Source: Naegleria gruberi (lineage: Eukaryota). From it: DNA of 64,000 nucleotides. Position 1 is the first letter of the stretch. The number at the start of each line of letters is the position of its first letter. Below, one piece after another: positions 3,401-63,726 of this stretch. Under the pieces are notes generated by a model. That model searched no databases, had not been told where the DNA came from, and saw nothing but the letters and a program-made list of their open reading frames with translations. Where the stretch lies: the NCBI GenBank assembly GCA_000004985.1, contig GG738871.1; one strand, given 5' to 3'. Position numbers and translations under genes: made by a program.

Positions 3401-3558
3401 AAGAAATTCAACGAGTGGAAAATGAAATTCCTGTAATTATTACCAAAGACCACCCATTGTGTTCACTTCTCCTTCCTCCACTTTCTGACACAAAGAAACC
3501 AGAAACTGTTGATGAGGAAATGAAAAATAACCAAACAACTAGTGGAGAGCAGCAATAA
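467..3558 (+). CDS. NCBP1: Nuclear cap-binding protein subunit 1 (CBP80/NCBP1). Two exons, join(467..960,999..3558), with a 38-nt intron 961..998 (GTATGT...tACTAAAttgaatAG).
   Basis: MIF4G-type helical repeats. The motif FDCKWSWDKWS matches the CBP80 signature FQFRWSWEDWS. An acidic/RS-rich N-terminal exon joins in frame via GT-AG (MQ|C VADFPVK). Confidence 0.8.
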
Positions 3559-3576
3559 ATTTGGCGCCATATTTTT
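3557..3576. promoter_or_regulatory. E2F-like palindromic element AAATTTGGCGCCATATTT. GGCGCC sits at 3563-3568, about 34 bp upstream of the ATG at 3602.
   Basis: T-run/GGCGCC/A-run palindrome. This is 1 of 7 copies in the window, all promoter-proximal. Confidence 0.55.
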
Positions 3577-3601
3577 AAATCAAAAAATTCAAATAAAAAA
3601 A

Positions 3602-5446
3602 ATGCAACAAAACCTTACACAACCTGGAAAACTCTCGCAACTCATTGAAGAATGGAGCAAGAGGGAATTACACCTAACCGAAATACCACAAACATTTTTT
3701 ATAAGAGAAGTGTGTAGAGGAAATATGATTCCGATATGGAAATTTCTGATCACATATGTGCATGATCCGAAAACTGTGGACCATGTTAAAAAGAATTTGA
3801 TGTTGTAAGTAATTGGTGTGATTTCTTATCATACATTGGGAATTAGGAGTGGAAAAAAGGTTCAAAAATCATTGGATGTCGAAAGAAAAAAGAGACAACA
3901 ACTTGTCAAACAAATTGAAGAAGTTAAATCAAGGATAAACGAAATTAAAGCTAAAGGAATACCAAACACTGAATTTGAAATTATGGAACTGAGGAAAAAA
4001 ATCAAAGTACTTCAATCATCTGTACAGAATCAAAAGAAACAGGAAGACCAAACTACAAAAGAAAATTTCTTAGTTAGAGCTTTTGAAGAAAAGTGTAAAT
4101 TTGACACTTCCGTGTTGAGTGAATATAGCCAGAAATTGGCCATATCGTATGACACAATGAAAAGAATTAACAATGTAAATATTAGCGAGGTTAGAAAAAT
4201 AATAGAAGAATTTGTAAATACTTGTGTTAAAACTTTGAGTAAGGAATTGAATATAGATATCAGTGAGATTGATTTTGCTTCCCTAAAAATCAAAGAACTG
4301 CTTACTCCACAGATTTTGGAACATGCTCAAGAAATACTCAAAGAGCAGTCGATATCTATTCGCCACTCGTTTGAGAATTCTCACACTCTTAAGGATGCTG
4401 ACAAGGAGAGGATTCAGCAAATTGAAAATGCATTGGAGGAGGAAAGAAGAAGACATATCACCAGATTTTCAGAAACTCAATCGTATGTTATCAAGACAGT
4501 ACACTATTTTAATTACATTACTAGTTTGTCTAATATCTCTCAAGACCTTAAGATAAAATTTGAAAGGCTAAACGAGGAAATAAGAGAAACAGGACTCACC
4601 ATCTTTGGTGAGAAATCAATTTATGTTGAGGAAATGAGAAAAAATGAAATTGAACTTTCTCAATTCAGAGCAGTACGAGCTGTACTAGAGGATTATATTG
4701 CTTGCCTTACAGAAGAAAGGGAAAAAAGAAAAATTGTAAGACAAAGCCTTCCTGTCAAACAACAAGAAATCAATAGTCTGAGACAAAAACGAATTCAAAA
4801 ATATGACAAGGTTGAGACACTAATTCAAGAAACCAATACATTGGTGAATATTTTGCCTCAGAAACAAGAACAAGTTCATATGTTTTTGCAAGACAGAATA
4901 CCACCAATTACAGAACCATTCGCTAATGTTTTGGAGACATTTGGCAATATTGTTGAAACTGAGTACAATACTGTTTCTAAAATACCATTGGACTATATCA
5001 TACACACAGATTATGGAGAGAAACGATTATTAAGGAAAGATCTTTCGATATTTGCCAGAGAAGAGCTAGGAGGGAAACTGAAAAAAATACTAGACATTTT
5101 AGAATTTCCTGAACATAAGGCGATTGACCATGTTCTTACTCATGCAACAGATATGAAACAAGAGTTGACTGTTCTAGAAAATGAAAGAGAGAATTTGAAA
5201 GAACTAATTGAACATATGCATGCAGTAGAGCAAGGAGTTGATTCATCTGCCATTCAACAGGTTATTGAGGAAAATCATGAACTAGAAAATGCACAGAACG
5301 AACATTGGACTGGTTTGATTGACAGAACAAAAATGGAGATTGAAAATTTCAAAGAGGAAGCAGAGAATGTACACAATTTATCTGAAGTGCTTTTACACAA
5401 TCCAGTTATCCAGAAAATTGACTGGAATTCATTATTAAACAATTAG
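3602..5446 (+). CDS. HAUS5: Augmin/HAUS complex subunit 5-like coiled-coil protein. join(3602..3804,3847..5446), intron 3805..3846 (GTAAGT...AG, 42 nt).
   Basis: N-terminus IWKFLITYVHDPKTVDHVKKNLML matches HAUS5 [24 protein letters not shown]. The remainder is long coiled coil. Both exons lie in the same frame and the intron length is a multiple of 3. Confidence 0.55.
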
Positions 5447-6561
5447 TTGGTTTTTGATTTACCAAAAAACTTCAGTAATTTGAGTAAGATAACAGTTGCA
5501 ATTACTAATGGAAGTGTGAATACTGAAATAATGGTTTTGATAGTACTATCAGTGTTATCTTCGACTGTTGTATTATCCAATTGATTTAAAAAGTCTGTAA
5601 CAGAACTTTCAGTTGGTGTAGAAACAACAGTAGTTGTTGGCTTTCTTATTGGTAATGATGGTAGGGCTCTTGTAGTTGGAGATGGTTTTCTGGCCTCAGT
5701 AGAGACTGAAGTTGTAAGAGTTGGTGAAATTTCAATTTCAGGGGTTCCAGGTGTAAGTTTCAGTTTTCCATCACCACTTGGAGAGGTGGCTTCTTCTTGG
5801 ATTATACGAAGATCTTCTTCGAATTGTTCAAGCAATTTTTGTTCTTCTTGTACTTGTTTTTCCATTTCTTTCATTTGTTGTTTGTTGAAAAGAGCCTTTT
5901 CGTGGAGTTGTGTAAGAGAACACAAAATTAATTTCTTATTCTTTTGAAGGAAAACATCTTCAAATGTGAAAAGCAAATCTACTGGAAATCCATCAACTTT
6001 TCTCAATCCTGCCAAAAACAAAGCCATATTATTCTTGGCATTAAAAAGATAATTACTATTGAAGGCCTTATCACTACTGAGTGAGAATAATTGTTGATCA
6101 AATTGATGGACCTTTTCATAGGCAATATATGTTGGGAAATAGTGTTGCAATAATTTACATAAAACAAGTCCATTTTCTAAATTGTAATAGAAATTACGAG
6201 AGCTTTCCTTCTTGGAAGCAATATCCGGTAATAATGAAGGTGATGATTTTACATCCAAACCACTGTCCTTTTTAGCAAATTTAATTCCTAAACTATTTTC
6301 GATCCAAGTTTGTAATTGTGTTTCAACTTCATGAAATTTATCTTCCTTGATATCACGTAAAGGACTAATATTCATAATAAATGTTTGCGAAAGGGAATCT
6401 GATCTTGTATGAATTGGAGTCATTGGAGAAGAAATATTTGTTAGTAATTTATTCTTTGGACGTAATGGAGTTGGGGTATTGCTATTACTGTCAACATAAT
6501 CAAAATCATCATCCAAAGAAAAGTTTTCATTTCCTCCGAACGTAACGCCTTGTGATGACAT
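5443..6561 (-). CDS. Calponin-homology (CH) domain protein with a coiled coil and a C-terminal tail-anchor TM.
   Basis: Central CH-domain pattern (WIENSLGIKF ... GLVLCKLLQHYFP ... ALFLAGLRKVDG ... LILCSLTQLH). Hydrophobic C-terminus LPLVIATVILLKLLKFF. ATG at 6561 in A-rich context, with an E2F-like site 30 bp upstream. Confidence 0.5.
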   Translation of the reverse strand: MSSQGVTFGGNENFSLDDDFDYVDSNSNTPTPLRPKNKLLTNISSPMTPIHTRSDSLSQTFIMNISPLRDIKEDKFHEVETQLQTWIENSLGIKFAKKDSGLDVKSSPSLLPDIASKKESSRNFYYNLENGLVLCKLLQHYFPTYIAYEKVHQFDQQLFSLSSDKAFNSNYLFNAKNNMALFLAGLRKVDGFPVDLLFTFEDVFLQKNKKLILCSLTQLHEKALFNKQQMKEMEKQVQEEQKLLEQFEEDLRIIQEEATSPSGDGKLKLTPGTPEIEISPTLTTSVSTEARKPSPTTRALPSLPIRKPTTTVVSTPTESSVTDFLNQLDNTTVEDNTDSTIKTIISVFTLPLVIATVILLKLLKFFGKSKTN

Positions 6562-6588: not shown

Positions 6589-6607
6589 TTTTTGGCGCCA
6601 TTTTTTT
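6589..6607. promoter_or_regulatory. E2F-like element TTTTTGGCGCCATTTTTTT (GGCGCC 6594-6599), 33 bp upstream of the minus-strand ATG at 6561.
   Basis: Same palindromic core as the other copies. It lies in the 128-bp spacer between divergent genes. Confidence 0.55.
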
Positions 6608-6740: not shown

Positions 6741-9700
6741 ATGCAAGCACTTCTACCACTGAGTGAAGCTCTTGGAATTTTGCTCAACACAAAGTTTAAA
6801 CAAGTCACCAATATAAATTCCGATAAACATTCATTGTTTCATGCTTATAGTTCATGGTCCTATTTTGTAAAATCTAAATTGATTTCTGGTGGAGAGAGTA
6901 CTGATTATGAAACAATTTTAAATGACAAACAATACGGAATTATTTTCATCTTGTTGGATAATTTAGTTGAAAAATCGTCAACTCTCAAATATCAACATAG
7001 TTTTCAATTATTGTGTGATTGTTTTTATAATGATGAATCTATTAATGATTTCGTATTTGGATTATTTATTCATATTTTAAAAAAGAAACCTGAAGATGAA
7101 TCTGCTACAAGAATTCAACAATATAAATATTCTATATGTAGATTTATTACAGAGTTCATATTGGAAAAAGAGTTCGAAAAAGAGGATAAACCTAAGTTAT
7201 TAATTGATAGTAATGAAACCATTCTTGATAGATTTGGGGATGACAAGTTGTCTAAATTGATGGAATATCTTTGGATTATTACTCGATACGAAAGTGTAAC
7301 GATGGATGGTAGAAGATTTGCTACAATTTTAACATCATCCTCAAGTGACCTTTTATTAATTTTGGGATATTTACTTTCACAAAATCAGAATGAAATCCTT
7401 TTCAAGCAATTTGAAACATATTTTAAATTAACTAGTGAGTTATTGCATTGGTTTGAAAATCAGAGAGATTTATACACAACCTCTCTCAAATATCTTCACA
7501 GTAGACTGAAAGAGATTTCATCTATTGTGTCAATAGTTAATAATTTAGAGAGAAGTTCCCGAGAGGATGATCAAAATAGGGCAAAAGATGGGCGAAACAT
7601 GTCCCTCAGATCATTTTCCTCTTTTTTAATAATTTATGGATTTTTAATGGTGGAAAATCGTGAACATTTTGAGCATTACATCAAATTTACAACAAAGATT
7701 GAGGGTTCTAGTTCTAAGCATGACTATTTATTTGATTATCTGATGGCTATATTACTGGAGCTTGAAAAAACTGAAAATGAGACAGAAATACTCCACAATT
7801 TAGTATACCTATCAGCAATACTAGGTAAAATGAAAAAGAAAGAACTAAAGAAATATTTGGGAATGAAGGTAAAGGGAGAAAAGGAAACCAAAACACTCTA
7901 TGAAATAATTATACATATTACTAATAACAAACTGGTAAGTATCCATTCTCTTTATTAAACCATTAATACTTGGAATAGTTTAAAATCAATTCGGAAAATA
8001 TTGCGAGAATAACAATTTATTTATATAAGGAAATGGTAAATTATACTGGAGAAACCAATGACAGAGGAGCATTTATTGATATGGTAATGGAAATGCTTGA
8101 AAGTGATGATATTGTTTCTAAGGCAGTCATACTTTTTGTTTCAGATATTATTAGTACTGATAAGAGTCAAATATATTCTATTTTCAAACTAGTTGAATCT
8201 GACAATGAAAAGGCAAAGAAAAATGGACTTGTAATTCTTTCTGAAATATTCAACTCTACCGATATTGATGAAGAGCTTTCTCATACAGTCACTGATTATT
8301 TAATCAATAAGCTTTCATCAGATGATTTATCTATTAGATCGTGTACTGCAACAGTATTTTCGAAATTGGATTTCAAATATATTGCAAACAGAATTATTCC
8401 ACTATATGTCTCAAAGAATGAGAAAGAGAGATCTGCAGCCCATGAAATTTTGACTAAACTAATGGAGAGCAACACTGAAAATCCAAATATTTTCATGAAT
8501 GTTGTAAACTCTATCAAAGATTTACCAATTTATGAGGATCCTAATCCAGATCAAACCAGAAAAAACATTGCAGAACGAGTTATGACATTTATTCCAAAGT
8601 ACTTTGCCCATCTTTCTCCAAATTCTTCAAGACTTTTGGTAGAAGAAATAATCACCACATTTTTTGAATCTAACACCAATTCTCTCTTAGTGTTTATGAT
8701 GAATAAGATTTTGAGTTTTACACTCTCTGTGGAAGCACCTCAAAAGATTCTTTCAAGTGAAGATGAATACATACTGAACAATAAGAAAGATACCTTGTTG
8801 GGCGTTCTTGCAAAAGTGTTGGAAAGGATAAACTGTCCAAAAATAGAGGAAGAAACCATCTTTGATATGCTAGCACCACTACTTGTACTAAAGACTTTAC
8901 CCGTTTCAATATTCTACTACATTCATCCTAATGCAGAGCATGATAAAATATTCACAGAAGTTTTGCTGATAATGATTAGAAATGTGATAGATTTGAGTAA
9001 ACCAGAAGAGGTAAGAAGAGTCTCTGCTGAAGTAGCTTCAAAACTACCACCCAGAATTACAATTTCCTCATTTGTTGCAAGGTTTTCCAACTATTTACAA
9101 AAGAACTCATTGACCAAGGCTAAGTCGGTTTTATTTTGCATTTGTCAAACTATAGCTCTATACGAGGAGGATCCATACTTGTATTCTTTTCTTACTGGCG
9201 AATCTCTCTTAATTCAATCCATTAAGAATGCCTGGAATTTACAATCCAACGATCAAGAATTATCAAAGATACATCAAGGATGTATGGATTGTATGGTTAT
9301 GATTATCAAGTATATGCTGAACTACAGTCACTCTGATGGTAACTTTATTTCAGATAATATTCTCAAACCATTGTCAAATAATTCAGAAAGCATGATGGTT
9401 AGAGTATCCATTTCCAATATCATAACAAAGTGCACCAATGTATTCCCTCTGAAACATTTGCTTTCACTTTCTAGTATGGTTATACCAATTTATTCTAAAG
9501 TTTTACTTTTAAAGAGAGAACCAAATGCTGAAACCTCCCTCTTCTACTGCTCAAGTCTTCAAGCATTGATGAATTTGGTTTTCAAAATCAAGACTGCTGT
9601 TCATCCATATTCCAAATCATTGTTAGAAATTATTTCCAAGTGCTTGTCAGAGTCTGATCCTAACATTCGTCACTTCTCCCTAAAGCTCCTTAGTTCACTA

Positions 9701-9847
9701 CTCTTTGCAAGAGATGATGTACTAGTGGATCATCAAACAATCTTTGAATTTGAAATTTTAAAGAAGGTTAAGGGAATGGCCTCTATTGAATCAAGTTTGG
9801 AAGTTCAAAAGCTTGCCAATGAATTGTGTAAAATAATGGGACTATGA
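6741..9847 (+). CDS. Large ARM/HEAT-like helical-repeat protein of unknown function. join(6741..7934,8030..9847), intron 7935..8029.
   Basis: Two long ORFs joined in frame by GTAAGT...AG. Only the 8030 acceptor preserves the frame. First in-frame ATG is at 6741 (AAAAAAATG). The sequence is alpha-helical, leucine-rich and repeat-like, with no specific family recognised. Confidence 0.45.
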
Positions 9848-9913
9848 GACATTTATTCACTGAATCTCTAATATTTCCCGCCAAATTATTGCTCAAAATA
9901 ACTACATAAAAAA

Positions 9914-11626
9914 ATGTCAGACTCACTCCTCAAAATCAAATTGCAAAACAAGGCAAAGGAACAACAGGAGAAGGCCATTCAAGATAGAAAGAAGGGAATA
10001 TTGGTCTTGATGATAAGACACTTATTTGATAATGGGTTGGTATCACTCTTATTGAAATTGTTAATCATTCTTTAAAGGTATCTTGACACAGCTGAGAGAA
10101 TGCAATCGGAAACAGGAATATCACTCAAAAGGTTTGATGCTGCTGATAATATGGATCTCAATAATATTATGATTGTATGTTTATTTTTGTATAACTGAGT
10201 TCATAATTGTTTAAGGAATTTGAAGAATACTATCAAATGAAATTTATGAAGAAACCAAAACTTTTCCGAAAACTACAATCTGATGCTGATGATACTCCAT
10301 CAAATATACCACCAAGTTCTAAAACAGCTCCATCCTCCTCTGCAACAGCAAAAACATCAAGAGCTGCAAGTGGAAGCTCCTCTTCTTCGGATCAAAAGGA
10401 CAAACCATCAGTAACTTCAAAAACAGCACCATCATCATCTACAAGAAAAACACCTACAACTATTACAGGAGCAAAAACATCAGCTAAGGATAATAAGGAC
10501 ACAAAAGAAGATAATGAGAAACAAAATGAAGGATTTGATATTTCAGGAAAAAAATTGGATACTACAAAACAACAACAACAAAAACAAGAAAAGAAGGAAA
10601 TTACAACCGAGGAAAATGAAGAAGACTATTATGAGGAAAGGTTATTGAAACCTCTACCTGAAAATTTATTCTTTGGTGATATGAGAGAACTTGCAGAAAT
10701 GATTAGAAGAGAAATCATTGTCACTAATCCAATGGTACATTGGGATGATATTTCAGGATTACATTATGCCAAACAAATGGTTAAGGAAGCAGTTGTCATG
10801 CCACTTAAATATCCTCAATTCTTCACAGGATTGATAACACCTTGGAAAGGAGCTTTGTTATTTGGGCCACCAGGTACTGGTAAGGTAAGTTTTTGAGAAT
10901 TGAGTTTAATGTTTTGAAATAATTATTCAGACAATGTTGGCTAAAGCTGTAGCAACCGAGTGTAAAACCACCTTCTTCAATATATCTGCATCCTCAATTG
11001 TGTCAAAATGGAGAGGTGACAGTGAAAAATTAGTCAGAGTACTTTTCCAACTTGCTAGACATCATGCACCTTCTACAATTTTTTTGGACGAATTGGACTC
11101 TATTATGAGTCAAAGAGTTTCAGCCACAGAACATGAAGGTTCGAGAAGAATGAAAACAGAATTATTGATTCAAATGGATGGTCTGTCGAAGAGTAATGAC
11201 CTTGTATTTGTGTTGGCTGCTAGTAACCTTCCTTGGGATTTAGATCAAGCTGTTTTGAGAAGATTGGAAAAGAAAATCCTTGTAGGCTTGCCAGATAAGG
11301 ATTCAAGAAATTCAATATTCAAAAATTGCCTTACTCCTGAAAGAGCCAATTTGACCGAGACTCAATACCAAGATTTAGCCGAGAAAACAGAAGGATATTC
11401 CGGATCTGATATCACACTTGCTTGCAAGGAAAGTGCCATGATTCCTGTAAGAAAAATTTTCAGTCAACTAGAAAAGTTGGATGCAAAAGCAACGAATGCA
11501 GCAGATAAGGTAGTTTTAGATAAGGTAGAAATGAAAGATATCGAATATTCTCTCAATATTATCAAACCCAGCGGAAACCAATATGAAGAGCAATATAATA
11601 AATGGCAACAAAAATTTGGAATTTAA
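9914..11626 (+). CDS. KATNAL2: Katanin p60-like AAA ATPase with an N-terminal LisH motif (KATNAL2-like). join(9914..10035,10078..10174,10216..10884,10931..11626).
   Basis: Walker A GPPGTGK|TMLAKAVA is split by a 46-nt GTAAGT...cAG intron and reconnects perfectly. LisH-like [19 protein letters not shown] in the 5' exons. The AAA core has strong similarity to the katanin/fidgetin subfamily. The S/T/A-rich linker repeats KTAPSSS. Confidence 0.8.
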
Positions 11627-14812: not shown

Positions 14813-17800
14813 TTATTTATAAGGATGGTAAATGTGTGATTTGTTTGGTCTATTAAGCGAAAAACCTTCATTGTCACTTGCTTGATTTTCATTTTCTTGC
14901 TGTTGTTGATTATGTTCTGGTCGATAGTACGTATAAAAAACATCACCAAAAGAAGATAATTGAGGAATAGATTTGGTTACAACTTCAATTCTTACCAATC
15001 CTGGAACAATTCTTTCAGGAACTGTACATACAATTCTATCACTCAATACTTGTGCAATGTTTGGAGAATCCTGTAATCCAAACATGACTCTGACAGAGTT
15101 GCCTTCCTTCTTAATTGAATCAAAATTACCTAGAATAGTTACCTCTTGTTGTCCATTGAGAGGACCTCTGTTAGGATGAATGGATGTTAATTGGAGTGAA
15201 ATATTGGATTGTTGAGGAGATGATTGATAACTATTGTTATTGCTAGTTGTTTGTTGAGGGTGATGATGATAAATTGGACTAGTATTAGGGGATGTGAAGG
15301 GATGGTGGTGAGTAGGATACTGATTGGATGGAAACATTGTTTGTTGGTTATTGGAATTATTGGAAATGCTACCATTTGAATTAGAATAATGATGGTGAAT
15401 CATTGATCCACTGTTACTGGAATTATTATTGTTGTAGTTTTGCAAGTTTGGTCTATTTGTAGTGGAATTGTGAATGTTATTAGAAGAGGAATTATCTTGT
15501 GAATTATTGGAGCTATGTCTATATCCATCATTTTGGAAAGGTGTCATAGAATTCATGGAAGGAGATTGAACATTTGCAACCTTTGTTCTTGCAGAGAAGG
15601 AATGTTGTTGCTGTTGGTTGACTGATGAAGTCTCATGATGATTATTCATATTATTGGTATTAGGCATTGCACTAGATGATTGAGAAGAGCTAGAAACATT
15701 GGTTGTACTTGTGGCGACTGGATTGTTTCCAATAGCTCTCAAATCTTGTGGTCTCGAACAAACATAGAATTTAGACGAATTAACCTTCTTGATAATCTTA
15801 TTGCTCATTGAAAACTCTGCTGAAATCCAAATTAGTTTTTGAGTTTCAGGTCTACCAGAAGTGAAAGGAAGTTTCTTTCTGAATTGTGCCTCATAAACAT
15901 CATCTTCATCAATAGAAAGTGTGCACTTAGCATTCTTCAACACTTCAGCAACCTTTGATGGATTCAACTTTGTGAATGAATCTACAAATGAAAGTGTTTC
16001 CATTACTTTAGTTTCAGTGTTTCCCTCCTTTGTGCAATAAACTGTACAAGTATCAAATACAAATGAAGAGATTACCTGTATGGTAATTACGTTTCTTTGA
16101 ACCCAATACTTGATACCATTCTTTTCCTTCTGAGATCCATCAATAATTTGAACAGTTGCAAATGATATGTTTTCATCATCTGAATCACTGCCTCCACTAA
16201 ATTCCTCAGAACCACTACTTGAATTATTCATACTGTTTGAACTTGCCTCTCTACTACCATTATTATTGTTGTTACTACTGTTTCCTCCTCCATTATTACT
16301 GGTCGAGTTATTTCTACGTTCAGAACTATTTGAAGAACCACCTCCATTTTGAGAATTACCAGATGATTCACCACTACCAGATACAGTTAACACATTTACA
16401 GGAGGCATTGGATAGGCATCTTCATTTTGATCTTCCTCTGATGAGACATCTTCTCTTTCATCTCCACTACTATTACTACTATTACCTCCGTCACTGCTGA
16501 GTCTTTCACTGCTACTACTTGTACCATTTCCACTACTGCCACCTTGATAATCCTCTGTTGTTGAATGATTGGATTTACCACTCGGAGAAATGAATGGTGT
16601 GAAAACAAGTTTGTTTAGTGAAATTTTTGATTTCATAGAATTGAATAGTTTGGAGAAGATGGTAAGAGCAGTAGGTACTCTCATAACACCACCCTGTACA
16701 AGGAAGTCCTTCTTCTTCTTTTGACTACTTTCATTTGACATGCTTTGTTGCTGTTGTTCAACAGGTTGGTGAATTTCTTCATCATTATTGGCAGTAGTGG
16801 ATGAATTGAGCAACATATCTTTGCTTGTTGCTTGGCCATTCTCTGATAATGTCTTTTTCATATCAGAGGAATGAGATTGCTCATTTGAAGATGACTTTGA
16901 TTGACTCTCCTGTCCAGAAGAGCTTGAACAATCATCACTTTCACTATTAGTAGCTGGAGATTGAGAGTGGATGTTTCTGTAACCACTACTTGCACTCATG
17001 GATTTCTCATGGTAGCTTGAAAGTGAATCACTGGAAGAAACATCAGTGGTAGAATCTTCTTCACCACTGCTACTGCCACTGTTTGATTCTTCATCTTTGA
17101 AATCTATTGTCTGATTATTGTTCTCTTGTTTCTTAGTGGTTGTTACGAGTCGGGAAATGTTGGTTTGGAGGAACTTTTGGTGCTTGCTCTTTGACTTGAT
17201 AAACTTTCTTGAAGAGGAAACGAGTCCATCATCATCTATAGCCACAGTAGCCTCATCCTCACTTTCATCAACATTCAAAACCCTAGGTCTAAACAATTCC
17301 ACTTGTATTTCATGTGAAGTTATTGTTGTTATCCATTTAATCTCAATGTAGGACTTGAAATCTGGGGACGGAGATAGTTTATCAAGAATTGAATAAATAT
17401 AGGAAGTTGGAAAGGTATCAATGGTATTGTATGTGGAGGTTGATTGAGATTTAATTTTAGCTGCATGATGGTTGTGGTGTGTTTTAATTTTGTTTTGATT
17501 ATTATTATTCGTCATTGTTGCGAAAGACTTTCTTCTCTTATCAAACAATAACTGTGATGATTGTGGAGGAGGTAGATTGGTTGTTGTTGTTTGTACGGAT
17601 GAAGAAGCAGCTATCACAGATGGAACGAATTGTTGTTGAGTATTTTCAGAATACTGAAGCAATGAATCATGAAATCTCTTTGAATGACGACTTGTTTTAC
17701 TACCACAATGTTTTGAAAATTGATGTTGTTGCAATTTCCAAGAATTAACGTTATGTACTGGTGGTGGAGTAGTATTGTTAAAGGGATGCTTTGAAAGCTT

Positions 17801-18076
17801 GTCCTCTGTTGTTGGTGATTTTTTAATCATCCAAGCTGAATTTTGAGATTCAATCTGCTGCTTTGTGTCGCAACCTGTGTTGTTTGTAAATATTCTCGCA
17901 GGCTCAAGTTTGCGAGTTTGGCTGAATTTGTTATTGTTAACGGAGTATTCAAAACAGCAACAACAATAAAAAGAAGAAGAGAAATATTGGTGTGGGTTAG
18001 TTGGGATGGATTCAAATTGAAATGTAAACCTACACAAAGATCTTCTCTGCTTCCGTGCTATCAGCAAATACTGCAT
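14813..18076 (-). CDS. Large S/N/Q-rich low-complexity protein with a C-terminal IPT/TIG domain and an upstream beta-rich DNA-binding-like region (putative transcription factor).
   Basis: IPT/TIG signature GPLNGQQEVTILGNFDSIKKEGNSVRVMFG...IVCTVPERIVPGLVRIEVVT. Long homopolymeric N/S/Q tracts. The true start is uncertain; a later Met such as MIKKSP is possible. Confidence 0.5.
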   Translation of the reverse strand: MQYLLIARKQRRSLCRFTFQFESIPTNPHQYFSSSFYCCCCFEYSVNNNKFSQTRKLEPARIFTNNTGCDTKQQIESQNSAWMIKKSPTTEDKLSKHPFNNTTPPPVHNVNSWKLQQHQFSKHCGSKTSRHSKRFHDSLLQYSENTQQQFVPSVIAASSSVQTTTTNLPPPQSSQLLFDKRRKSFATMTNNNNQNKIKTHHNHHAAKIKSQSTSTYNTIDTFPTSYIYSILDKLSPSPDFKSYIEIKWITTITSHEIQVELFRPRVLNVDESEDEATVAIDDDGLVSSSRKFIKSKSKHQKFLQTNISRLVTTTKKQENNNQTIDFKDEESNSGSSSGEEDSTTDVSSSDSLSSYHEKSMSASSGYRNIHSQSPATNSESDDCSSSSGQESQSKSSSNEQSHSSDMKKTLSENGQATSKDMLLNSSTTANNDEEIHQPVEQQQQSMSNESSQKKKKDFLVQGGVMRVPTALTIFSKLFNSMKSKISLNKLVFTPFISPSGKSNHSTTEDYQGGSSGNGTSSSSERLSSDGGNSSNSSGDEREDVSSEEDQNEDAYPMPPVNVLTVSGSGESSGNSQNGGGSSNSSERRNNSTSNNGGGNSSNNNNNGSREASSNSMNNSSSGSEEFSGGSDSDDENISFATVQIIDGSQKEKNGIKYWVQRNVITIQVISSFVFDTCTVYCTKEGNTETKVMETLSFVDSFTKLNPSKVAEVLKNAKCTLSIDEDDVYEAQFRKKLPFTSGRPETQKLIWISAEFSMSNKIIKKVNSSKFYVCSRPQDLRAIGNNPVATSTTNVSSSSQSSSAMPNTNNMNNHHETSSVNQQQQHSFSARTKVANVQSPSMNSMTPFQNDGYRHSSNNSQDNSSSNNIHNSTTNRPNLQNYNNNNSSNSGSMIHHHYSNSNGSISNNSNNQQTMFPSNQYPTHHHPFTSPNTSPIYHHHPQQTTSNNNSYQSSPQQSNISLQLTSIHPNRGPLNGQQEVTILGNFDSIKKEGNSVRVMFGLQDSPNIAQVLSDRIVCTVPERIVPGLVRIEVVTKSIPQLSSFGDVFYTYYRPEHNQQQQENENQASDNEGFSLNRPNKSHIYHPYK

Positions 18077-18473
18077 GGTAGGTTACCATGGCTTTATCGC
18101 AAATTTTTTTATGTTCTCCCCTTACGAGATTTTATTAATTACCAACAAATTTGCATAATAAATAGATCAAGCAAACATTCTCAAAATTTGAGATCAATCC
18201 CGAGCGAGCTGCGCTACTTGAAGTGGTACCAAGCTTGGTTTGTCCAAGCCACAAACTACCAAAAACATCTTAGACACTCTCCCAATCACAAAAAACAAAA
18301 TGATGACTATTCTTTCAGAAAATGAATCATAGTTTTTAATTTTCCTTATGTATTGAAATAAGGATGTATTATCTGAACATAATTCGGAACAAATAATTTT
18401 CTCTGCTAGGGGCAATACAAAATAACTGTTAGTTTTGAAAGGTGGAATTTACGAAAATCCATTGTACAAAAAA

Positions 18474-20070
18474 ATGCTTATTGGAACGGAAGCAGATTCA
18501 TCATTGGACCATCACCAACATAAAATGTTGCTTGATGATATGGTGCTAGTTTCATCACCATCATCAAACAACGCGGAAGAAGAGCACGAAGAAGAACAAT
18601 TAAAATTATTATCATCACCAAGTTCTAATGAAAGTTTAATAACAATGGTCTCATCGTCAATGGATGATACTACATCAAATCTAGTGAAGCCGACACCCAA
18701 AATCATGGAATCAAGAATTTACTTTCATCAAAATTCACAATTATTATTTCTAAATTTTGAAGATTTTTACTTGGAAACACAAGAGGACGTTGATGTTGTG
18801 ATTAAATTTATTGAATTAACATTTACAAATTATTTAGCGGATGAGGAGTTACAAAGAAAGATACAGTCCAATAGTATAAATCGAAGAAATAGTTTCATAA
18901 AGGAAAAACCAAATAATTCAAAGAAAAAGACAAATATTGATGTTTATATTTGTTATGATAGATTTCATTGCCAACTTGATTTACTAAAATACTATTCCGA
19001 AAAAGTAGCCTATCTAGAGGCTAATTATTATAGATCAGTGAAGAGATTCACAACGGAATCACTAGAGGATAAATTATTGAAAAAGTTTGAAAGTGTTTTG
19101 GAACAACAAGAACATGTCGATGAACCAATAATTCAAAATTTTGAAATGTTGAATGGACGATACATTATCCAATCAGAACATTTAATAGCTAGAGGTACTT
19201 TTGGAAGGTAAGTAATACATCACCAAATATGCATTCCGAACTAAAATTATTTAGGGTATTCCTTGGACAGGATAAATTAACAGGAGATTTGGTAGCAGTA
19301 AAGGAATTAAAAAGAAAAAACATTGACAGTGTTGAAGGTTTGAAAGAACTTATTGATAAGGAATTGAAAATTTGTAAATTATTATCACAATCCCTAAAGG
19401 ATGGTGAATCACATATTGGAAAAAAGTATATTTGTAAAATATATGATGTAATTGATACAGAACCCTTCCATTATATTGTAATGGAGTATTTAGCTAATGG
19501 ATCACTTGAGAATCCTCTTGAGGAAAGAGAAACATTCCCACCCGAAGTTGCAAAGAAATATATCAAACAGTTATCCTATGCACTTGATTATATTCATAGT
19601 ACACTAAATATATGCCATCGTGATATTCAATTGGCTAATTTATGTTTGGATGCACATGGAAATATCAAGCTTGTAGATTTTGGATTGAGGTAAGTTCAAA
19701 TTATTGAAAAATAATTATTGACTTTCAAAGTGATTTCTTTACCAAAGAGGCAACAACTCATAATTCATTTTGTGGAAATTATGCATCTCCTGAAATGATT
19801 TTAGCGACTAAATATATAGGATACGAGGGAGATTGTTATGGAATGGGACTTTTATTGTATAAATTATTATCAGGATTTTTCCCATTTCGTTCAAGTGTAG
19901 ATAAGATTGTAGAACAATACTACATTCCATTGGATGAATTGGAAAGGGAAGGTACATTGAATGAATCCAGTATATCCTTAATTAAAGGTCTTTTAGAAAA
20001 AGATCCTTGTAAAAGATTAACAACAAAAGATGTCATTAATCATGAATGGTTACAAGATGTTGAAGTTTAA
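18474..20070 (+). CDS. Protein kinase with a non-kinase N-terminal region. join(18474..19207,19255..19689,19731..20070).
   Basis: GTFGR|VFLGQD...VAVKEL, HRDIQLANL, DFGL|R, SPE..., D.Y..G. Two 41-47 nt GTAAGT introns are placed at phase 2. The catalytic loop is unusual: HRDIQLAN instead of HRDLKPEN. Confidence 0.7.
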
Positions 20071-21103: not shown

Positions 21104-21120
21104 ATTTGGCGCCAAAATTT
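21104..21120. promoter_or_regulatory. E2F-like element ATTTGGCGCCAAAATTT (GGCGCC 21108-21113), 38 bp upstream of the ATG at 21151.
   Basis: Perfect TTTGGCGCCAAA palindrome. Confidence 0.6.
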
Positions 21121-23180: not shown

Positions 23181-23191
23181 GGCGCCAAAAG
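23181..23191. promoter_or_regulatory. E2F-like half-palindrome GGCGCCAAAAG (GGCGCC 23181-23186), 28 bp upstream of the minus-strand ATG at 23153.
   Basis: Same GGCGCC core with the A-run on one side only. Confidence 0.45.
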
Positions 23192-25153: not shown

Positions 25154-25365
25154 TTTTTTTTGAAAAGAAAATTATGGAGAAATGGATTTCCACTCAAAAG
25201 ATTCTTCGTTCGTTTCAATTTAATTTTGAAACACATGTTGTTTAGGGATGATGAATATGAAGAAATGGGAGAATGCTCGGATAATCTCCTTGAATATTAT
25301 GAAAGTGCTTACGAGTTTGAGGGGAAATTTCTCCCGCCAATTTGTAATTTCAAAAAATCAAAAAA

Positions 25366-41012: not shown

Positions 41013-42155
41013 ATGGCTCAAACTATTGGCGGGAAATCTGCAGCTGCTTTCACACAAACCTCCAGAACATCAAAATTTAGTAAAGGAACAATTTCTTCAT
41101 TGAGTTTTAAAATTCGATTGTGTTGTGGGGTTTTAGAACTTGACTGCATGCGATTACTGTCTCTAATTAGTTTATTTATTAACATTTCAGCATTTATTAT
41201 TGTTGCTGGTGTAACCATTGACATGTTTTCGATAACTAATCAATCCTATTCGAAAGTATTAATTGCGAGGGGAGATGCTTTAAATTCAAATGAACTAATG
41301 ATTGATATTGTAAGAGTTGGAGCATTATCCAGAAATAATTCAGAGATTGACAAGTGGTATTCGTATAGAGATCAGACAATTGAGGCATTGAATCGATTTT
41401 TCAAATATGTTGATCCATCTGTCAATACTACAAATTTCAATTCTGGAAGTAGAAATGGACGAGACATGTATACGATTCCATTGATGGAGGAAATTATTTC
41501 ACACCTGAAAAATCAACAATACGAAAGTGCACTAACTTTGTATCAGGGATTTACTTATCAGAATTTAACTGCCACCTGGTTTAAACAACAATCGGCTGTG
41601 TTTAATTTGGTAAAAACAGAAGGAAGAGGACAAGATGATTTAGTTTTGAATTCGTCTACTTCAAATTTGGTGGTGGTTAGTGTTTGTCTTGCAATTGTTA
41701 TTCCAATTGTTGTTCTAATGACTTGTTTGAATATTCGAAGGGAATCAACCATATCCGAAACTCTTCATAATTCTAGAGCTATTCAATTATTGGATACAAT
41801 GAATGATCCAATGTATTCTAAATTCTTCAAACAAGCATGTGTTTCAGAGAAAATGTTGGATTCGTACATGTTACTTTCTCAAATTCTGGAATTTAATCAA
41901 ATTCAAGACGAAACTGAGCAGAGAAATAAGGCTCAGTATATTTATCAAACCTATCTTGCAACTACAAGAAGGGTTCCATTCAAGTTTGTAAGCAAAACAC
42001 TAATTGCCAACATTTACAAGGATTTACAGGAATCATCATTGCCAGAAAAGGCAATTCGAGTCAGTGTGTTTAGAGAACTTGAGGCGTGCATTTGTGAGGA
42101 ATTAATTCCGGTTCATAGGATGTTTATGAAGACAATTAAGGATACTGGTAAATAA
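41013..42155 (+). CDS. Two-TM receptor-like protein with a C-terminal RGS-like domain (paralog B), head-to-head with paralog A.
   Basis: It has the same architecture and shared motifs as A (LIARGDAL..., second TM LVVVSVCLAIVIPIVVL, DPMYSKFFKQACVSEKML...AQYIYQTYL). Sequence is diverged but collinear with 39385-40716. Confidence 0.55.
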   Translation: MAQTIGGKSAAAFTQTSRTSKFSKGTISSLSFKIRLCCGVLELDCMRLLSLISLFINISAFIIVAGVTIDMFSITNQSYSKVLIARGDALNSNELMIDIVRVGALSRNNSEIDKWYSYRDQTIEALNRFFKYVDPSVNTTNFNSGSRNGRDMYTIPLMEEIISHLKNQQYESALTLYQGFTYQNLTATWFKQQSAVFNLVKTEGRGQDDLVLNSSTSNLVVVSVCLAIVIPIVVLMTCLNIRRESTISETLHNSRAIQLLDTMNDPMYSKFFKQACVSEKMLDSYMLLSQILEFNQIQDETEQRNKAQYIYQTYLATTRRVPFKFVSKTLIANIYKDLQESSLPEKAIRVSVFRELEACICEELIPVHRMFMKTIKDTGK

Positions 42156-44045: not shown

Positions 44046-44058
44046 ATGGCGCCAAAAC
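44046..44058. promoter_or_regulatory. E2F-like element ATGGCGCCAAAAC (GGCGCC 44048-44053) upstream of the minus-strand calmodulin-like gene.
   Basis: Same GGCGCC+A-run core as the other copies. Confidence 0.5.
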
Positions 44059-46370: not shown

Positions 46371-47686
46371 TTATCCATTTAAATCATATTTACAACATGG
46401 ACAAGTGTGGTTTTCCTCTAACCACTTGTCAATACAGTCTCTGTGAAAAATGTGTAAGCAAGGTAATCTCCTTAACTGCTCTCCATTCTGATATTCTTCC
46501 ATGCAAAATGTACAATTATTATCATCAAAATTATGTTGATTATTGTTAAATATTGTTATTGGAAGATTAGTCAATAAATCCTTATTGACACCAATTTTGA
46601 TATTAGCCTCATCCAATCTTAATAACTCCTCATAAGACTCCTCTCCTGTAAAGTTTTGAACACTTGAGCTAAGGGGATTAGCAGTACGAATATTTGATGC
46701 GAAGGAAGGAGCACTATAGTTTCCTCCAAGATTATTAGAAATTAATTCATCAAAGTTTGTAACTCTAGATTGATAGCTAGCAAATTCTTCTTGTTGCAAT
46801 CTTCTGGCTAAGATTTCATCCTCAGAAAGGTTATGTTGTGTAGACGCTGATGCTCGAGAATTATTGGATGAGGAAGATGCTTCTGATGAGCTACTACTAG
46901 TCGTAGTAGTAGATCTTGGAAGAAGTAGTCTCGATTGTGCAGTCTTGGACTTTGAAGCTATTGAGGGTCTCAGTGAGGGATTTCTAACAGGCTTAATTTC
47001 AGAAACTCTCTGAGTGGTCGATGTTGTTGACCCAACCTCTATTGCTCTTTTTACTGCTGATGTTGATGATGTTGGGGTAGCAGATTTTGTTGATGATGAC
47101 GAGGTGTTAGTTTTTGTTAATATAGAGGAAGAGTGTGGAATTCTTGTTGGAGTTAGAGTAGATGGTGGTTTGTATAATGATGGTTGAACTGTGGCAATAG
47201 TTGGTGGTGAATCTTTGTTTTTTCCTATTATTGCAAGATCATCATTTCCAGAGTTTAAATGTACTGCTGATCCACTTGGAGATTTGTCCTTTGCTCGTAA
47301 TTGTCTTTTCAGAGCATCATTACTAGCCTCTAATTGTTTAATCAATTCTTTAGCTCGCCCTAATTCATCTTCCAAATATTTGATCTTTTTATCCTTTTCT
47401 TGTGTTTCCCTGCAGAATTTTATAATAAATTATTACTAATAATTACTAGTACATACACCTCAAAACCACTGATTTTAATGGCTGCCTCCTCTAAAGCTAA
47501 CTCCAAGGCATAAGAGTTGGTGTTCGGATTTCCAAAGTCGTGGAAGGTATTTTGCATTTTTATTTTTGTTGGTTTGCAATTTTCGTTGTTGAGCGGTAAA
47601 TTTTGGCGGCAAACAATAGTTTCCTCAATCAACACCACTTTCTTTGGTAATGAGGATGATCTTTTGGTGTTGTTAATCTTTTTCAT
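46371..47686 (-). CDS. RING-H2 E3 ubiquitin ligase with an N-terminal helical region. About complement(join(46371..47409,47467..47686)).
   Basis: C-terminal RING-H2 CTFCMEEY...LPCLHIFHRDCIDKWL...CPCC. The N-terminal exon (MKKINNTK...LALEEAAIKIS) joins via a 57-nt intron. The donor choice GTTTTG is uncertain. Confidence 0.6.
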
Positions 47687-55850: not shown

Positions 55851-56335
55851 TTTTTTGTGCTGAGTTTTTTTGTACGCTGTTAAAAAGTCGAAAAGCTAAC
55901 GGTACTTGAAAGTTACGATTTTTAGGCGGCAAACTTCCTTTTACTGGTATTGTTACCAATAACACTCTTGGTGTTGTGGTAATCCTCCTCAATGATTGTT
56001 ATGGAGTTTGAGACGTTGAGGTTTCTTCTTGCTGAATTGTGCTTGATGATTCTTTTAAAAAGAAAATGGAAGATTGGTATCCTATCGTTATCATTCTATG
56101 AGGATTCAAATTCAGTGTTGATGAAGTGATTGAGTTTTTTTTTGAGGGAAGATTTAAGATTTGTTTCTTGGCTGTAGATACAATAGTAGAGACAAACGGT
56201 CCTTGTAACAAGATAAATCGAGTCATTAGTGAATATCACACCTAAACTACTGCTGCAAGTGTTACAGCTAAACCAAATACTCTGTATGACTCAGGTCATG
56301 CGTTGGCAAAAACTATTTTTCATCATTAAATAAAA

Positions 56336-61415: not shown

Positions 61416-61430
61416 TTTTTGGCGCCAAAC
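61416..61430. promoter_or_regulatory. E2F-like element TTTTTGGCGCCAAAC (GGCGCC 61421-61426) in the 70-bp bidirectional spacer between RBBP4 (ATG 61383, minus) and CWC27 (ATG 61454, plus).
   Basis: A single palindromic site is positioned 38 bp and 28 bp from the two divergent start codons. Confidence 0.6.
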
Positions 61431-61453
61431 AATTTAATTTTTCCACTTAAAAA

Positions 61454-62629: not shown

Positions 62630-62637
62630 GATTGTCT

Positions 62638-63670
62638 TTATTTCAAAGTTTTTTTCCGATTTTTGGAAGTTGGAGACCTATATCTATCCCTTTCGGTTGT
62701 TGGCCTGGAGTTTGATTCATTCCCCATTCTTTTAATGGATGAAATTAAGGAAGTATTGGATTTGATTAATGATGAACGAGCCTTTGATTCGAATTGGCTA
62801 TGATGTATCTGTGCTGTATTTTTAAGATTGCTATATCTTAGTGAGACTTGCTCAACCTCTCGATTTCTTTGTTGAATTGTTTCACTTCTTTCTCTTCTTA
62901 TTTTAATATCGAAACTATCAAGTTCTTGTTGTTGCTTTTTAAGTAAATGACTTTTCTTTTTTTCGAATGATGAGCTGTATTTAAGCATGAGCTTTCTCAT
63001 CTCTTCTTCTTGCAGCTTTTCAGCCTTCTTTTTTACCTATTTATAATTATTTAAGGTTTTTTGCTCGGAATGATGATGAACTACTTACAGATATTGCTTC
63101 GAAATAAAATTCTTGTCTTGCTAGAGTTTCCTCCATCATTTTCAAGGTAATTAAATCTCTCGTCTTTGGATTGTATTTACGTTCTATTTCATCAAAGAAT
63201 TTTTGTTCAAAATCCTCTAATTCTTTAGCATGCTTTTCAGCAAGTCTTTGTTTTGTATCGTCAAAGGATTGTTCCAGACCATTGATCTTTTCTTCCCATC
63301 GATCTTTTACTTCTCTTACTTCTTGTTCAAATGCTGAATCTATTTCTTCTCTTTCCTTTAATTGTATTCGCTTAATATTATCTATATGTCTCTTCTCATT
63401 TTGAAATTTTAATAATAACATTGCTTTCTTTCCTATTTCGCATTGTTCATATTCACCTCTAGCAAAACACATCCTATGATATTCTTTTAAAATTCTGATA
63501 GCCATCTCGTAAGTCATCTCTTGCGGTAGAGGTTCATGACTAAACGTTAGACTAATAATACCTTTTGCTTCCTCTTCCACCATCTCGAGTCCTTCATCAA
63601 ATTTATCAATTGATGATGCAACCAAGCTCCCCGAGAGCTTATTACTACGAAGTGAACTCGAAAAAGACAT
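62638..63670 (-). CDS. Hypothetical coiled-coil protein. complement(join(62638..63036,63089..63670)).
   Basis: Two ORFs joined at phase 0 by a 52-nt GTAAGT...AAATAG intron. The frame opens exactly at the acceptor. Charged coiled coil. An E2F-like site lies about 43 bp upstream of the ATG at 63670. Confidence 0.45.
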
Positions 63671-63707
63671 TCTCGTAATTTTTTATATTTTATTTCTGCT
63701 CAGAAAA

Positions 63708-63726
63708 CTTTTGGCGCCAAAAATAA
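63708..63726. promoter_or_regulatory. E2F-like element CTTTTGGCGCCAAAAATAA (GGCGCC 63713-63718).
   Basis: Perfect TTTTGGCGCCAAAA palindrome upstream of the minus-strand coiled-coil gene. Confidence 0.55.

Follow-up and report, generated by a model that had tools for sequence, protein, structure and literature searches.

Motif sites and genes in the window

The analysis covered a window of 64,000 nucleotides of Naegleria gruberi DNA (contig GG738871.1); a 100% sequence identity confirms the organism. The hexamer GGCGCC occurs in it seven times, exactly at the coordinates given by the first-pass annotation (3563, 6594, 21108, 23181, 44048, 61421 and 63713). Five non-palindromic relatives with CCCGCC or GCCGCC cores, absent from that annotation, were found at 9874 (TTTCCCGCCAAA), 25333 (CTCCCGCCAAT), 41028 (TTGGCGGGAAA), 47605 (TTTTGGCGGCAAA) and 55925 (TTAGGCGGCAAA). 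The wider motif family, TTTSSCGC(C)AAA, thus has 12 sites in the window, and the GGCGCC palindrome is its commonest form. The N. gruberi gene identifiers in the window are 68266, 68267, 68274, 79967, 49545 and 79971. The sites and the adjacent genes are listed below; at GGCGCC copies, the distances run from the hexamer to the ATG.

3560..3571, plus strand: TTTGGCGCCATA, E2F-type, 33 nt upstream of the HAUS5-like ATG at 3602 and 5 nt past the stop codon (3558) of the preceding MIF4G-like gene
6591..6602, no strand assigned: TTTGGCGCCATT, in the divergent promoter of NAEGRDRAFT_68266 (CH-domain gene, minus strand, ATG 6561, 32 nt from the site) and NAEGRDRAFT_68267 (plus strand, first long-ORF ATG 6741)
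9874..9885, plus strand: TTTCCCGCCAAA, non-palindromic, 31 nt upstream of ATG 9914 of a katanin-p60-family AAA ATPase gene (9914-11626, in which two short introns were found)
21105..21116, no strand assigned: TTTGGCGCCAAA, full palindrome; the ATG (21151) of the coiled-coil protein NAEGRDRAFT_68274 follows 37 nt downstream
23181..23190, minus strand: GGCGCCAAAA on the plus strand and TTTTGGCGCC as read in the direction of the gene, 27 nt ahead of ATG 23153 of a choline-phosphate cytidylyltransferase-like (CCT) gene (22197-23153, minus strand)
25331..25341, plus strand: CTCCCGCCAAT, degenerate, 27 nt upstream of ATG 25366 of a DnaJ-like_C11_C protein, in a divergent promoter common to this gene and NDOR1 (ATG 25153, minus strand)
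41026..41036, plus strand: TTGGCGGGAAA, within the annotated CDS of the RGS-domain gene NAEGRDRAFT_49545, 12 nt in from its start (ATG 41013)
44048..44057, minus strand: GGCGCCAAAA, in gene orientation TTTTGGCGCC; ATG 44015 of an EF-hand, centrin/calmodulin-like gene lies 32 nt downstream
47601..47613, minus strand: read in gene orientation, TTTGCCGCCAAAA; about 47 nt separate it from ATG 47557 of the downstream RING-finger gene (46371-47557, minus strand, with a single intron)
55925..55933, minus strand: TTTGCCGCC in gene orientation; an ELO-family fatty-acid elongase gene starts 74 nt downstream (ATG 55850)
61418..61429, no strand assigned: TTTGGCGCCAAA, full palindrome at the centre of the 70-bp RBBP4/CWC27 bidirectional promoter (RBBP4/MSI1-like gene, minus strand, ATG 61383, 37 nt; CWC27-like gene, plus strand, ATG 61454, 27 nt)
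63710..63721, no strand assigned: TTTGGCGCCAAA, full palindrome in the bidirectional promoter of a 207-aa gene (minus strand, ATG 63670, 42 nt) and its neighbour (plus-strand ATG 63732, 13 nt)

The site at 41026..41036 is a doubtful member of the set; it may be a chance match, or may lie at the transcription start or downstream of it.

Enrichment and form of the motif

In dinucleotide-preserving shuffles of the window, GGCGCC occurred 0.34 times on average (maximum 2), and none of the 100 shuffles reached seven copies. The earlier claim of an excess holds, at about 20-fold, while its expectation of about one copy was too high. The E2F-type consensus TTTSSCGC gave 14 strand matches at 11 loci against 1.03 expected, the twelfth site (25333, TCTCCCGC) having one mismatch to it, and GGCGSS gave 19 strand matches at 12 loci against 2.76 expected. 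The window is CpG-depleted (CpG observed/expected 0.41), and the motif is a GC-rich, CpG-containing word that survives in it nearly alone, accounting for 12 of the 13 SSCGSS hexamers.

Flanks of a T-run on one side and an A-run on the other, which had been ascribed to every GGCGCC copy, are present at three of the seven (21108, 61421 and 63713, all TTTGGCGCCAAA); the remaining four have a one-sided run only (TTTGGCGCCATA, TTTTTGGCGCCATTT, GGAAGGCGCCAAAA and GAATGGCGCCAAAA). The description of the element as the optimal palindromic E2F site was right in the E2F/DP-type sequence, the flanks and the promoter-proximal position, but the strict palindrome is probably not the functional unit. That unit would be an oriented TTTSSCGC half-site, and full palindromes stand where two genes diverge.

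Position and orientation relative to gene starts

All seven GGCGCC copies lie outside ORFs of at least 100 aa and are intergenic, and each has, on at least one side, a plausible gene ATG at a distance of 27-42 nt from the edge of the hexamer, in agreement with the 20-50 bp proposed in the first-pass annotation. For the whole family, 11 of the 12 sites are found in the 80 nt preceding a start codon; such zones together cover 5.9% of the window (P = 3.6e-13). Several of these gene starts were assigned after inspection near the motif, and homology supports them. The mechanically listed ORF starts alone place 6 of the 12 sites in such a zone (P = 1.5e-5). ORFs occupy 72.5% of the window but contain just one of the 12 sites.

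The spacing to the ATG is about 27-47 nt at 10 of the 11 promoter sites and 74 nt at the other. At six of the seven single-strand promoter sites, the strict TTTSSCGC match reads in the sense direction of the nearest gene, and both clearly bidirectional promoters carry the full palindrome. At the promoter with the copy at 6594, the T-run is on the "wrong" side for the nearest gene. We infer very short 5' UTRs from this arrangement; just as well, the transcription start could coincide with the site or fall slightly upstream of it.

Conservation at orthologous promoters

Orthologous loci were compared in N. fowleri, N. lovaniensis, Willaertia, Acrasis and two Naegleria-like metagenome contigs. 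An SSCGSS hexamer was found within 120 nt in 10 of 15 orthologous promoters and in 2 of 64 other promoters at the same loci (Fisher P = 1.2e-7). The CCT promoter site is kept in four taxa, and the RBBP4 site in N. lovaniensis, Willaertia, Acrasis (with one mismatch) and metagenome contig L009, where it reads TTTGGCGCC and lies 39 nt upstream compared with 37 nt in N. gruberi. The ELO promoter site is present in three taxa in identical orientation; its core is CCCGCC in N. lovaniensis (35 nt upstream) and in Willaertia (74 nt upstream). The N. fowleri orthologue of the DnaJ-like_C11_C gene has GGCGCC 58 nt upstream, and in N. lovaniensis the start codons of RBBP4 and CWC27 are just 37 bp apart.

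Where the core changes among orthologues, GGCGCC is replaced by GGCGGG or CCCGCC, changes permitted by E2F specificity. Some orthologous promoters carry degenerate versions (TGCGCC, TCCGCC and, in metagenome contig L008, CCCTCC). The density of sites is uneven, with 12 in the 64-kb window and 0-4 per 21 kb at the other loci, and no such site was found upstream of the N. lovaniensis E2F gene itself. As judged from these comparisons, the sites appear to be under purifying selection and are retained at orthologous heterolobosean promoters.

E2F, DP and Rb proteins of Naegleria

The E2F-type regulon proposed in the first-pass annotation depends on the presence of E2F/DP homologs, and a search showed that both NgruE2F and NgruDP exist. 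Their sequences, with those of NgruDEL and NgruRB, are given in the supplement of Medina et al. 2016 (PMC4862756). Pfam domains E2F_TDP and E2F_CC-MB were detected in NgruE2F, and E2F_TDP and DP in NgruDP. NgruE2F matches an NCBI N. gruberi protein with 100% identity and has orthologues in N. lovaniensis, N. fowleri, Willaertia and Acrasis. Its residues 63-131 align to human E2F4 of the E2F4-DP2-DNA structure (PDB 1CF7) with E = 7e-25, and a 24-residue stretch that includes the recognition helix is identical in the two proteins. The RRxYD motif is RRRVYD in NgruDP, while NgruDEL, an E2F7/8-like protein, has two E2F-type domains, the first with KRRIYD and the second with the variant RRLND. Because the recognition helix (RRxYD motif) is conserved, the same DNA specificity is expected for NgruE2F.

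Interpretation of the sites

The seven GGCGCC copies and their five non-palindromic relatives are most probably promoter-proximal binding sites of the N. gruberi E2F family, as predicted from the motif, its conservation and the cognate proteins. The binders would be the E2F-DP heterodimer and possibly also the two-domain DEL protein. E2F-DP may bind near the transcription start and activate the target genes in proliferating amoebae, and Rb (or DEL) would repress them once cells stop cycling, as is the case in animals, plants and Dictyostelium. The T-run would mark the gene-distal side, so that a half-palindrome would serve one gene and a full palindrome (61421, 63713) two divergent genes. The putative target set is broad and comprises spindle/microtubule (HAUS5, katanin family), chromatin (RBBP4), membrane lipid (CCT, ELO), splicing (CWC27) and other genes.

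It is possible, though rather unlikely, that the main binder is the atypical NgruDEL acting as a repressor instead of an activating E2F-DP heterodimer. Such a protein does exist, with its two E2F-type domains and KRRIYD in the first, and the symmetric TTTGGCGCCAAA would suit two tandem domains, for which the variant RRLND of the second domain is less favourable. NgruE2F can be aligned to 4YO2, a solved structure of E2F8. Crystals of E2F8 have reportedly been obtained with a site of the TTCCCGCCAAAA type. The sequence contains nothing that would distinguish DEL from E2F-DP. As both classes use the same sites in animals and plants, binding by DEL would refine rather than exclude the explanation by the E2F family.

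A lineage-specific core-promoter or transcription-start element, bound by the basal machinery or by some factor with no relation to E2F and only coincidentally similar to an E2F site, is an unlikely explanation. The unusually tight spacing to the ATG would fit it, as would the orientation bias together with the functionally mixed genes, which suit a general positional element, and perhaps 20-30% of the genes in the window carry the motif. However, the match to E2F extends past the GC core to the T-run, the A-run and the exact S-S degeneracy, the evolutionary turnover is confined to E2F-permitted variants, and Naegleria possesses the cognate factors, their recognition helix unchanged. In animals, E2F sites occur at or close to transcription starts, e.g. 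at DHFR, so a positional role and E2F binding are compatible.

Combining the two is a more far-reaching proposal, which we put forward tentatively and hold to be possible rather than probable. According to it, the E2F site could be a distance-locked, orientation-dependent core-promoter element in Heterolobosea, with the T-run gene-distal and the site about 30-45 nt before the ATG, that sets the start and direction of transcription for perhaps 15-30% of genes, including those of membrane-lipid synthesis. Perfect palindromes would then be minimal bidirectional promoters and E2F/DP a general growth-promoter factor, which, if true, possibly reflects the ancestral eukaryotic state.

An RNA-level element of the 5' UTR, e.g. 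a translational or stability signal, is very improbable. At 27-47 nt from the ATG the motif would be transcribed if 5' UTRs were about 50 nt long, and one JGI EST-extended model in the GFF of Kennard et al. has a 48-nt 5' UTR. Against this, the palindrome has no loop and therefore could not form a hairpin, the non-palindromic variants and the sites common to two divergent genes favour recognition as DNA, and it is a DNA-binding protein that has this motif as its consensus.

That the copies arose by chance or from base composition, or are pieces of a dispersed repeat or mobile element, can be dismissed: MITE-like elements can spread short palindromes and T-runs and A-runs are common in AT-rich intergenic DNA, but this origin is refuted by the shuffles, by the conservation of the sites at orthologous promoters whose surrounding intergenic DNA has diverged, and by the comparison of flanks, in which no similarity extends past about 14 nt. 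Outside the central 14 nt the flanks are 33.5% identical (maximum 47%) against 27.8% expected from composition; they are unrelated, and the motif is therefore not part of a dispersed repeat, a possibility that the first-pass annotation had singled out for checking. As far as the analysis reached, none of the three kinds of evidence named there as refuting the E2F reading turned up.

Range of the predicted E2F targets

The enrichment for cell-cycle and chromatin functions claimed in the first-pass annotation would be in keeping with a few genes, HAUS5, RBBP4, the katanin-family ATPase and the EF-hand protein, but CCT, ELO, DnaJ-like_C11_C, the RING E3 and CWC27 show no obvious fit. Several other motif-bearing genes are unknowns without an obvious cell-cycle fit, and the sample is too small for statistics. 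The window itself contains none of the canonical S-phase genes such as MCM2-7, PCNA, RNR and CDC6. Because equally conserved sites precede CCT, the elongase, DnaJ-like_C11_C, the RING E3 and CWC27, the predicted regulon looks like a broad proliferation or growth set, with lipid-synthesis and housekeeping targets, and not a narrow cell-cycle set. Mitotic-synchrony RNA-seq of N. gruberi exists (Kennard et al. preprint, Data S2).

In the searchable literature we found no published cis-regulatory element for Naegleria or other heteroloboseans and no E2F-DP binding data for any heterolobosean. No earlier description of the E2F-type promoter motif seems to exist for this lineage; the biology itself matches specialist expectation, and the finding therefore overturns nothing. 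Conservation of the cognate motif of E2F/DP, an ancient cell-cycle factor, in sequence, degeneracy and promoter position, very far from animals and plants, adds support at the cis level. The motif offers a means of predicting the proliferation regulon, both in N. gruberi and in the pathogen N. fowleri; it can also aid the design of compact or bidirectional promoters for transfection vectors and help interpret the existing mitosis and differentiation expression clusters.

Comparison with known systems

The consensus of animal and plant E2F-DP sites is TTTSSCGC, and the human E2F1 motif is listed as TTTGGCGCCAAA (PMC5449588). The Naegleria sites share with them the 12-bp architecture, the 6-bp S-only core with a central CG, the 5' T-run and 3' A-run, the core variants GGCGCC and GGCGGG/CCCGCC, and the promoter-proximal location. 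Like animals and plants, Naegleria has Rb and an E2F whose recognition helix matches that of human E2F4. Unlike in animals and plants, the sites of this compact genome keep very tightly to a position about 27-47 nt upstream of the ATG, and they seem to follow an orientation rule, with the T-run gene-distal.

In the amoeba Dictyostelium, the Rb protein RblA represses S-phase and mitotic/microtubule genes, among them tubulin cofactor, EB1, CLASP and mitotic kinesins (Strasser et al. 2012, PMC3386910). A parallel to this regulon is that the genes with the motif in Naegleria include HAUS5, RBBP4 and the katanin-family gene. The Dictyostelium regulon was defined by mutant expression, whereas the Naegleria set is known from cis-elements.

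In Cryptosporidium parvum, no upstream motifs are more over-represented than TGGCGCCA and GGCGGG (Oberstaller et al. 2013, PMC3734150). Cryptosporidium and Naegleria are both protists with AT-rich, compact genomes and short upstream regions in which the GGCGCC and GGCGGG forms are strongly over-represented, both motifs precede a broad gene set (in Cryptosporidium DNA replication, glycolysis, lipid transport and RNA processing), and in both E2F was assigned in silico. The two belong to different supergroups, Alveolata and Discoba/Heterolobosea. Cryptosporidium is without most E2F-interacting partners (PMC3734150), while Naegleria has Rb and a DEL protein; in contrast to the Cryptosporidium study, cross-genus conservation at orthologous promoters is demonstrated directly for the Naegleria motif.

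Occurrence and placement of the sites

The hexamer GGCGCC was found seven times in the window, exactly at the coordinates given in the first-pass annotation, as against a mean of 0.34 and a maximum of 2 copies in 100 dinucleotide-preserving shuffles; the G+C content was 30-36% throughout. The same annotation placed every copy in intergenic sequence and close to a start codon, and both statements were borne out, as all seven lie outside ORFs of at least 100 aa and have a plausible gene ATG 27-42 nt away on at least one side. Its description of a T-run on one side and an A-run on the other holds in part: the full TTTGGCGCCAAA palindrome is present at 21108, 61421 and 63713 only, while the other four copies are one-sided.

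GGCGCC copies in the window; distances are counted from the hexamer edge to a plausible gene ATG
3563: ATG 3602, plus strand, 33 nt
6594: ATG 6561, minus strand, 32 nt
21108: ATG 21151, plus strand, 37 nt
23181: ATG 23153, minus strand, 27 nt
44048: ATG 44015, minus strand, 32 nt
61421: ATG 61383, minus strand, 37 nt; ATG 61454, plus strand, 27 nt
63713: ATG 63670, minus strand, 42 nt; ATG 63732, plus strand, 13 nt

The motif family extends beyond the palindrome. Counted by strand, the E2F consensus TTTSSCGC (S = G or C) was matched 14 times, at 11 loci, where 1.03 matches would be expected; GGCGSS was matched 19 times, at 12 loci, where 2.76 would be expected. Together with five non-palindromic relatives, the E2F-type sites number 12.

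Additional E2F-type sites
9874: TTTCCCGCCAAA
25333: CTCCCGCCAAT
41028: TTGGCGGGAAA
47605: TTTTGGCGGCAAA
55925: TTAGGCGGCAAA

Of the 12 sites, 11 have a start codon no more than 80 nt downstream. Such upstream zones make up 5.9% of the window (binomial P = 3.6e-13); when mechanically listed ORF starts alone were used, six of 12 fell within them (P = 1.5e-5). With ORFs covering 72.5% of the window, one site (41028) is inside an ORF. This sequence, TTGGCGGGAAA at 41026-41036, lies 12 nt into the annotated coding sequence of NAEGRDRAFT_49545, an RGS-domain gene, and its membership in the family is doubtful: either the annotated ATG is wrong or this is the single match that chance would give in the window. 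NAEGRDRAFT_49545 forms a divergent pair with NAEGRDRAFT_79971 (39385-40716, minus strand), which also encodes an RGS domain.

The whole window contains 13 G/C-only hexamers with a central CpG, and 12 of them are E2F-type sites, so the CpGs there appear to be protected by selection. The remaining hexamer, CCCGGC at 33406-33411, has no T/A flanks and lies about 210 nt upstream of a ZNF598-like gene (33620-35620). The window (1-64000) is strongly depleted in CpG (observed/expected 0.41, compared with 0.80 for GpC), for which cytosine methylation might be the cause.

Site architecture and orientation

Aligned so that each reads in the direction of its nearest gene, the E2F-type sites gave the consensus TTT-SSCGCC-AAA, followed by AT-rich sequence and then by an A-run just 5' of the ATG. 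In 11 of the 13 gene-oriented rows the T-run is at the end away from the gene. The sense strand of each of the four non-palindromic promoter cores is SCCGCC, and at six of seven single-strand promoter sites the strict TTTSSCGC match is in the sense direction of the nearest gene. The exception in orientation is 6594, whose T-run is directed at the farther gene, 68267. At 61421 and 63713, the two promoters that are clearly bidirectional, the palindrome is complete. Beyond their central 14 nt, the sites are embedded in unrelated sequence (33.5% identity, with 27.8% expected), which rules out a dispersed repeat.

With the ATG 27-47 nt from the site, the 5' UTRs would be very short unless the site is at or just after the transcription start. 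Several sites adjoin the 3' end of the upstream gene because the genome is compact; at 3563, the stop codon of that gene is just 5 nt before the site. Most genes have a run of 5-9 A (AAAAAAATG) in front of the start codon, e.g., those starting at 3602, 6561, 9914, 23153, 25366, 44015 and 61383, which looks like a lineage-specific translation-initiation context.

Genes at the sites

The NDOR1-type ORF of 618 aa (23297-25153, minus strand) matches a protein of Naegleria gruberi with 100% identity, and six more ORFs of the window correspond exactly to proteins of this species.

Genes adjoining E2F-type sites
HAUS5-like augmin subunit
CH-domain protein, for which structure comparison found no solved relative
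CTP-transferase, choline-phosphate cytidylyltransferase-like (CCT)
RBBP4-type WD40 protein
CWC27-type cyclophilin
EF-hand protein
RING-finger protein
DnaJ-like_C11_C protein
ELO-family fatty-acid elongase (ELO), based on Pfam annotation of orthologues
katanin-p60-family AAA ATPase, first exons assembled by hand
several proteins without a recognisable domain

For the katanin-family protein, Pfam did not confirm a LisH domain at the N-terminus; judging by the human sequence it may be 'KATNAL2-like', and the assignment is supported to the 'katanin-p60 family' level only. In the NCBI model NAEGRDRAFT_68267 (1020 aa; 6741-9847), ORF 6741-7958 is spliced to ORF 8033-9847 by removal of a short intron; an ENA assembly calls the second of these ORFs alone as a 604-aa protein. 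A TORTIFOLIA1-like match on 8033-9847 was below the Pfam threshold.

The proposed enrichment of the downstream genes for cell-cycle and chromatin functions is anecdotal; such a role would suit HAUS5, RBBP4 and the katanin-family ATPase, and possibly the EF-hand protein as well. The equally conserved sites at CCT, ELO, DnaJ-like, RING and CWC27 point to a broad set of growth or proliferation genes. Kennard et al. (bioRxiv 10.1101/2024.01.08.573270) give, in Data S2, log2FC values per N. gruberi gene for mitotic synchrony and for differentiation, and PCNA and mcm5 are assigned there to 'mitosis cluster 1'.

An intronless 555-aa ORF at 44142-45809 (minus strand) encodes a fusion of a bacterial-type CoA-disulfide/persulfide reductase and a rhodanese domain. 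The solved structures nearest to it belong to FAD-dependent pyridine nucleotide-disulphide oxidoreductases and CoA-disulfide reductases (3NTA, 3ICR; E ~1e-146), which are bacterial. The gene is a candidate for horizontal acquisition, and its 3' end adjoins site 44048. The window contains no tRNA, Rfam family or notable tandem repeat.

Conservation at orthologous promoters

The comparison covered orthologous loci of N. fowleri (L001), Willaertia magna (L002, L005), N. lovaniensis (L004, L006) and Acrasis kona (L007), together with three metagenome contigs, two of them (L003 and L009) from a single JGI sample and the third (L008) from a sample in ENA.

Motifs at orthologous promoters, with distance upstream of the start codon
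CCT, N. gruberi: GGCGCCAAAA, 27 nt
CCT, N. fowleri: TTTGGCGCCAA, 56 nt
CCT, L003: TTGGCGGGAA, 32 nt
CCT, Willaertia: TTGGCGGGAAA and GCGCCAAAAAA, the sole two TTTSSCGC matches of the 22-kb locus
RBBP4, L009: TTTGGCGCCATTT, 39 nt (N. gruberi, 37 nt)
RBBP4, N. lovaniensis: GCGCCAAAAAA, within the 37-bp spacer between its ATG and that of CWC27
RBBP4, Willaertia: TTTCCGCCAAAA, 31 nt
RBBP4, Acrasis: TCTCCCGCG, 41 nt, one mismatch
RBBP4, L008: only TTTCCCTCCAAA
ELO, core GCCGCC or CCCGCC with orientation unchanged: 74 nt in N. gruberi and in Willaertia, 35 nt in N. lovaniensis
DnaJ-like/NDOR1: N. gruberi, CCCGCC; N. fowleri, GGCGCC

SSCGSS occurs no more than 120 nt from the start in 10 of the 15 orthologous promoters, compared with two of 64 other genes of the same loci (Fisher P = 1.2e-7). 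The core switches between GGCGCC, GGCGGG and CCCGCC among taxa while its position is kept, as is predicted by the S-S degeneracy of E2F sites. For HAUS5, the metagenome scan yielded no relatives whose promoters could be compared. The N. fowleri GGCGCC at L001:14165 was rejected as an orthologous site, being inside a CDS without T/A flanks, and was judged to be coding Gly-Ala; the promoter of the gene that holds it has GGCGGG instead.

In N. lovaniensis (L004, 9963-10001) the divergent CWC27 and RBBP4 start codons are 37 bp apart with a GCGCCAAA half-site between them, which implies 5' UTRs of a few nucleotides or overlapping transcripts. In Willaertia L005, a sequence that is tRNA-like by eye (ggtgcggtggtcgagaggtctaag…ggttcgaacccc; ~9826-9910), about 90 nt upstream of the RBBP4 start, occupies the place of CWC27, the neighbour of RBBP4 in Naegleria. 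The same locus has an independent TTGGCGCCAAT site (18511-18516), 26 nt upstream of a RING-finger gene (17285-18487, minus strand) that adjoins two EF-hand genes, recalling the site-bearing RING and EF-hand genes of the N. gruberi window.

E2F-family factors and predicted mode of action

NgruE2F, NgruDP, NgruDEL (two-domain, E2F7/8 type) and NgruRB are listed in the supplement of Medina et al. 2016 (PMC4862756). Pfam confirmed the domains of the first two, with E2F_TDP and E2F_CC-MB in NgruE2F and E2F_TDP and DP in NgruDP, and NgruE2F agrees with an N. gruberi protein at NCBI with 100% identity. NgruE2F has orthologues in N. lovaniensis, N. fowleri, Willaertia and Acrasis, and it is these taxa that also conserve the motif. 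The DNA-binding domain of NgruE2F aligns to that of human E2F4 in the E2F4-DP2-DNA structure (1CF7), and the recognition helix and wing are identical over 24 residues, so the same DNA specificity is expected, judging from the established structure. No E2F-type site indicating autoregulation was found upstream of the N. lovaniensis E2F gene. The C-terminus of NgruE2F (…SGEGVSDLFL) appears to resemble the Rb-binding motif of animal E2Fs.

In the mechanism we propose, E2F-DP, and possibly DEL, would bind the sites at or near the transcription start, with the T-run orienting the complex, so that a half-palindrome would serve one gene and a full palindrome two. The target genes would be activated during proliferation and repressed by Rb or DEL once cells leave the cycle, a pattern known from animals, plants and Dictyostelium (PMC3386910).

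Comparison with known systems

By every in silico criterion the element is a predicted E2F-family site, and it would work like one. Such sites are to be expected in Naegleria and the finding is of modest use; its mild interest is in the strict spacing and orientation. For heteroloboseans, Naegleria included, our literature search turned up neither this nor any other promoter motif. The nearest precedent comes from upstream regions of Cryptosporidium, where the TGGCGCCA/GGCGGG motif is likewise associated with a broader growth or proliferation gene set (PMC3734150), as predicted for N. gruberi.
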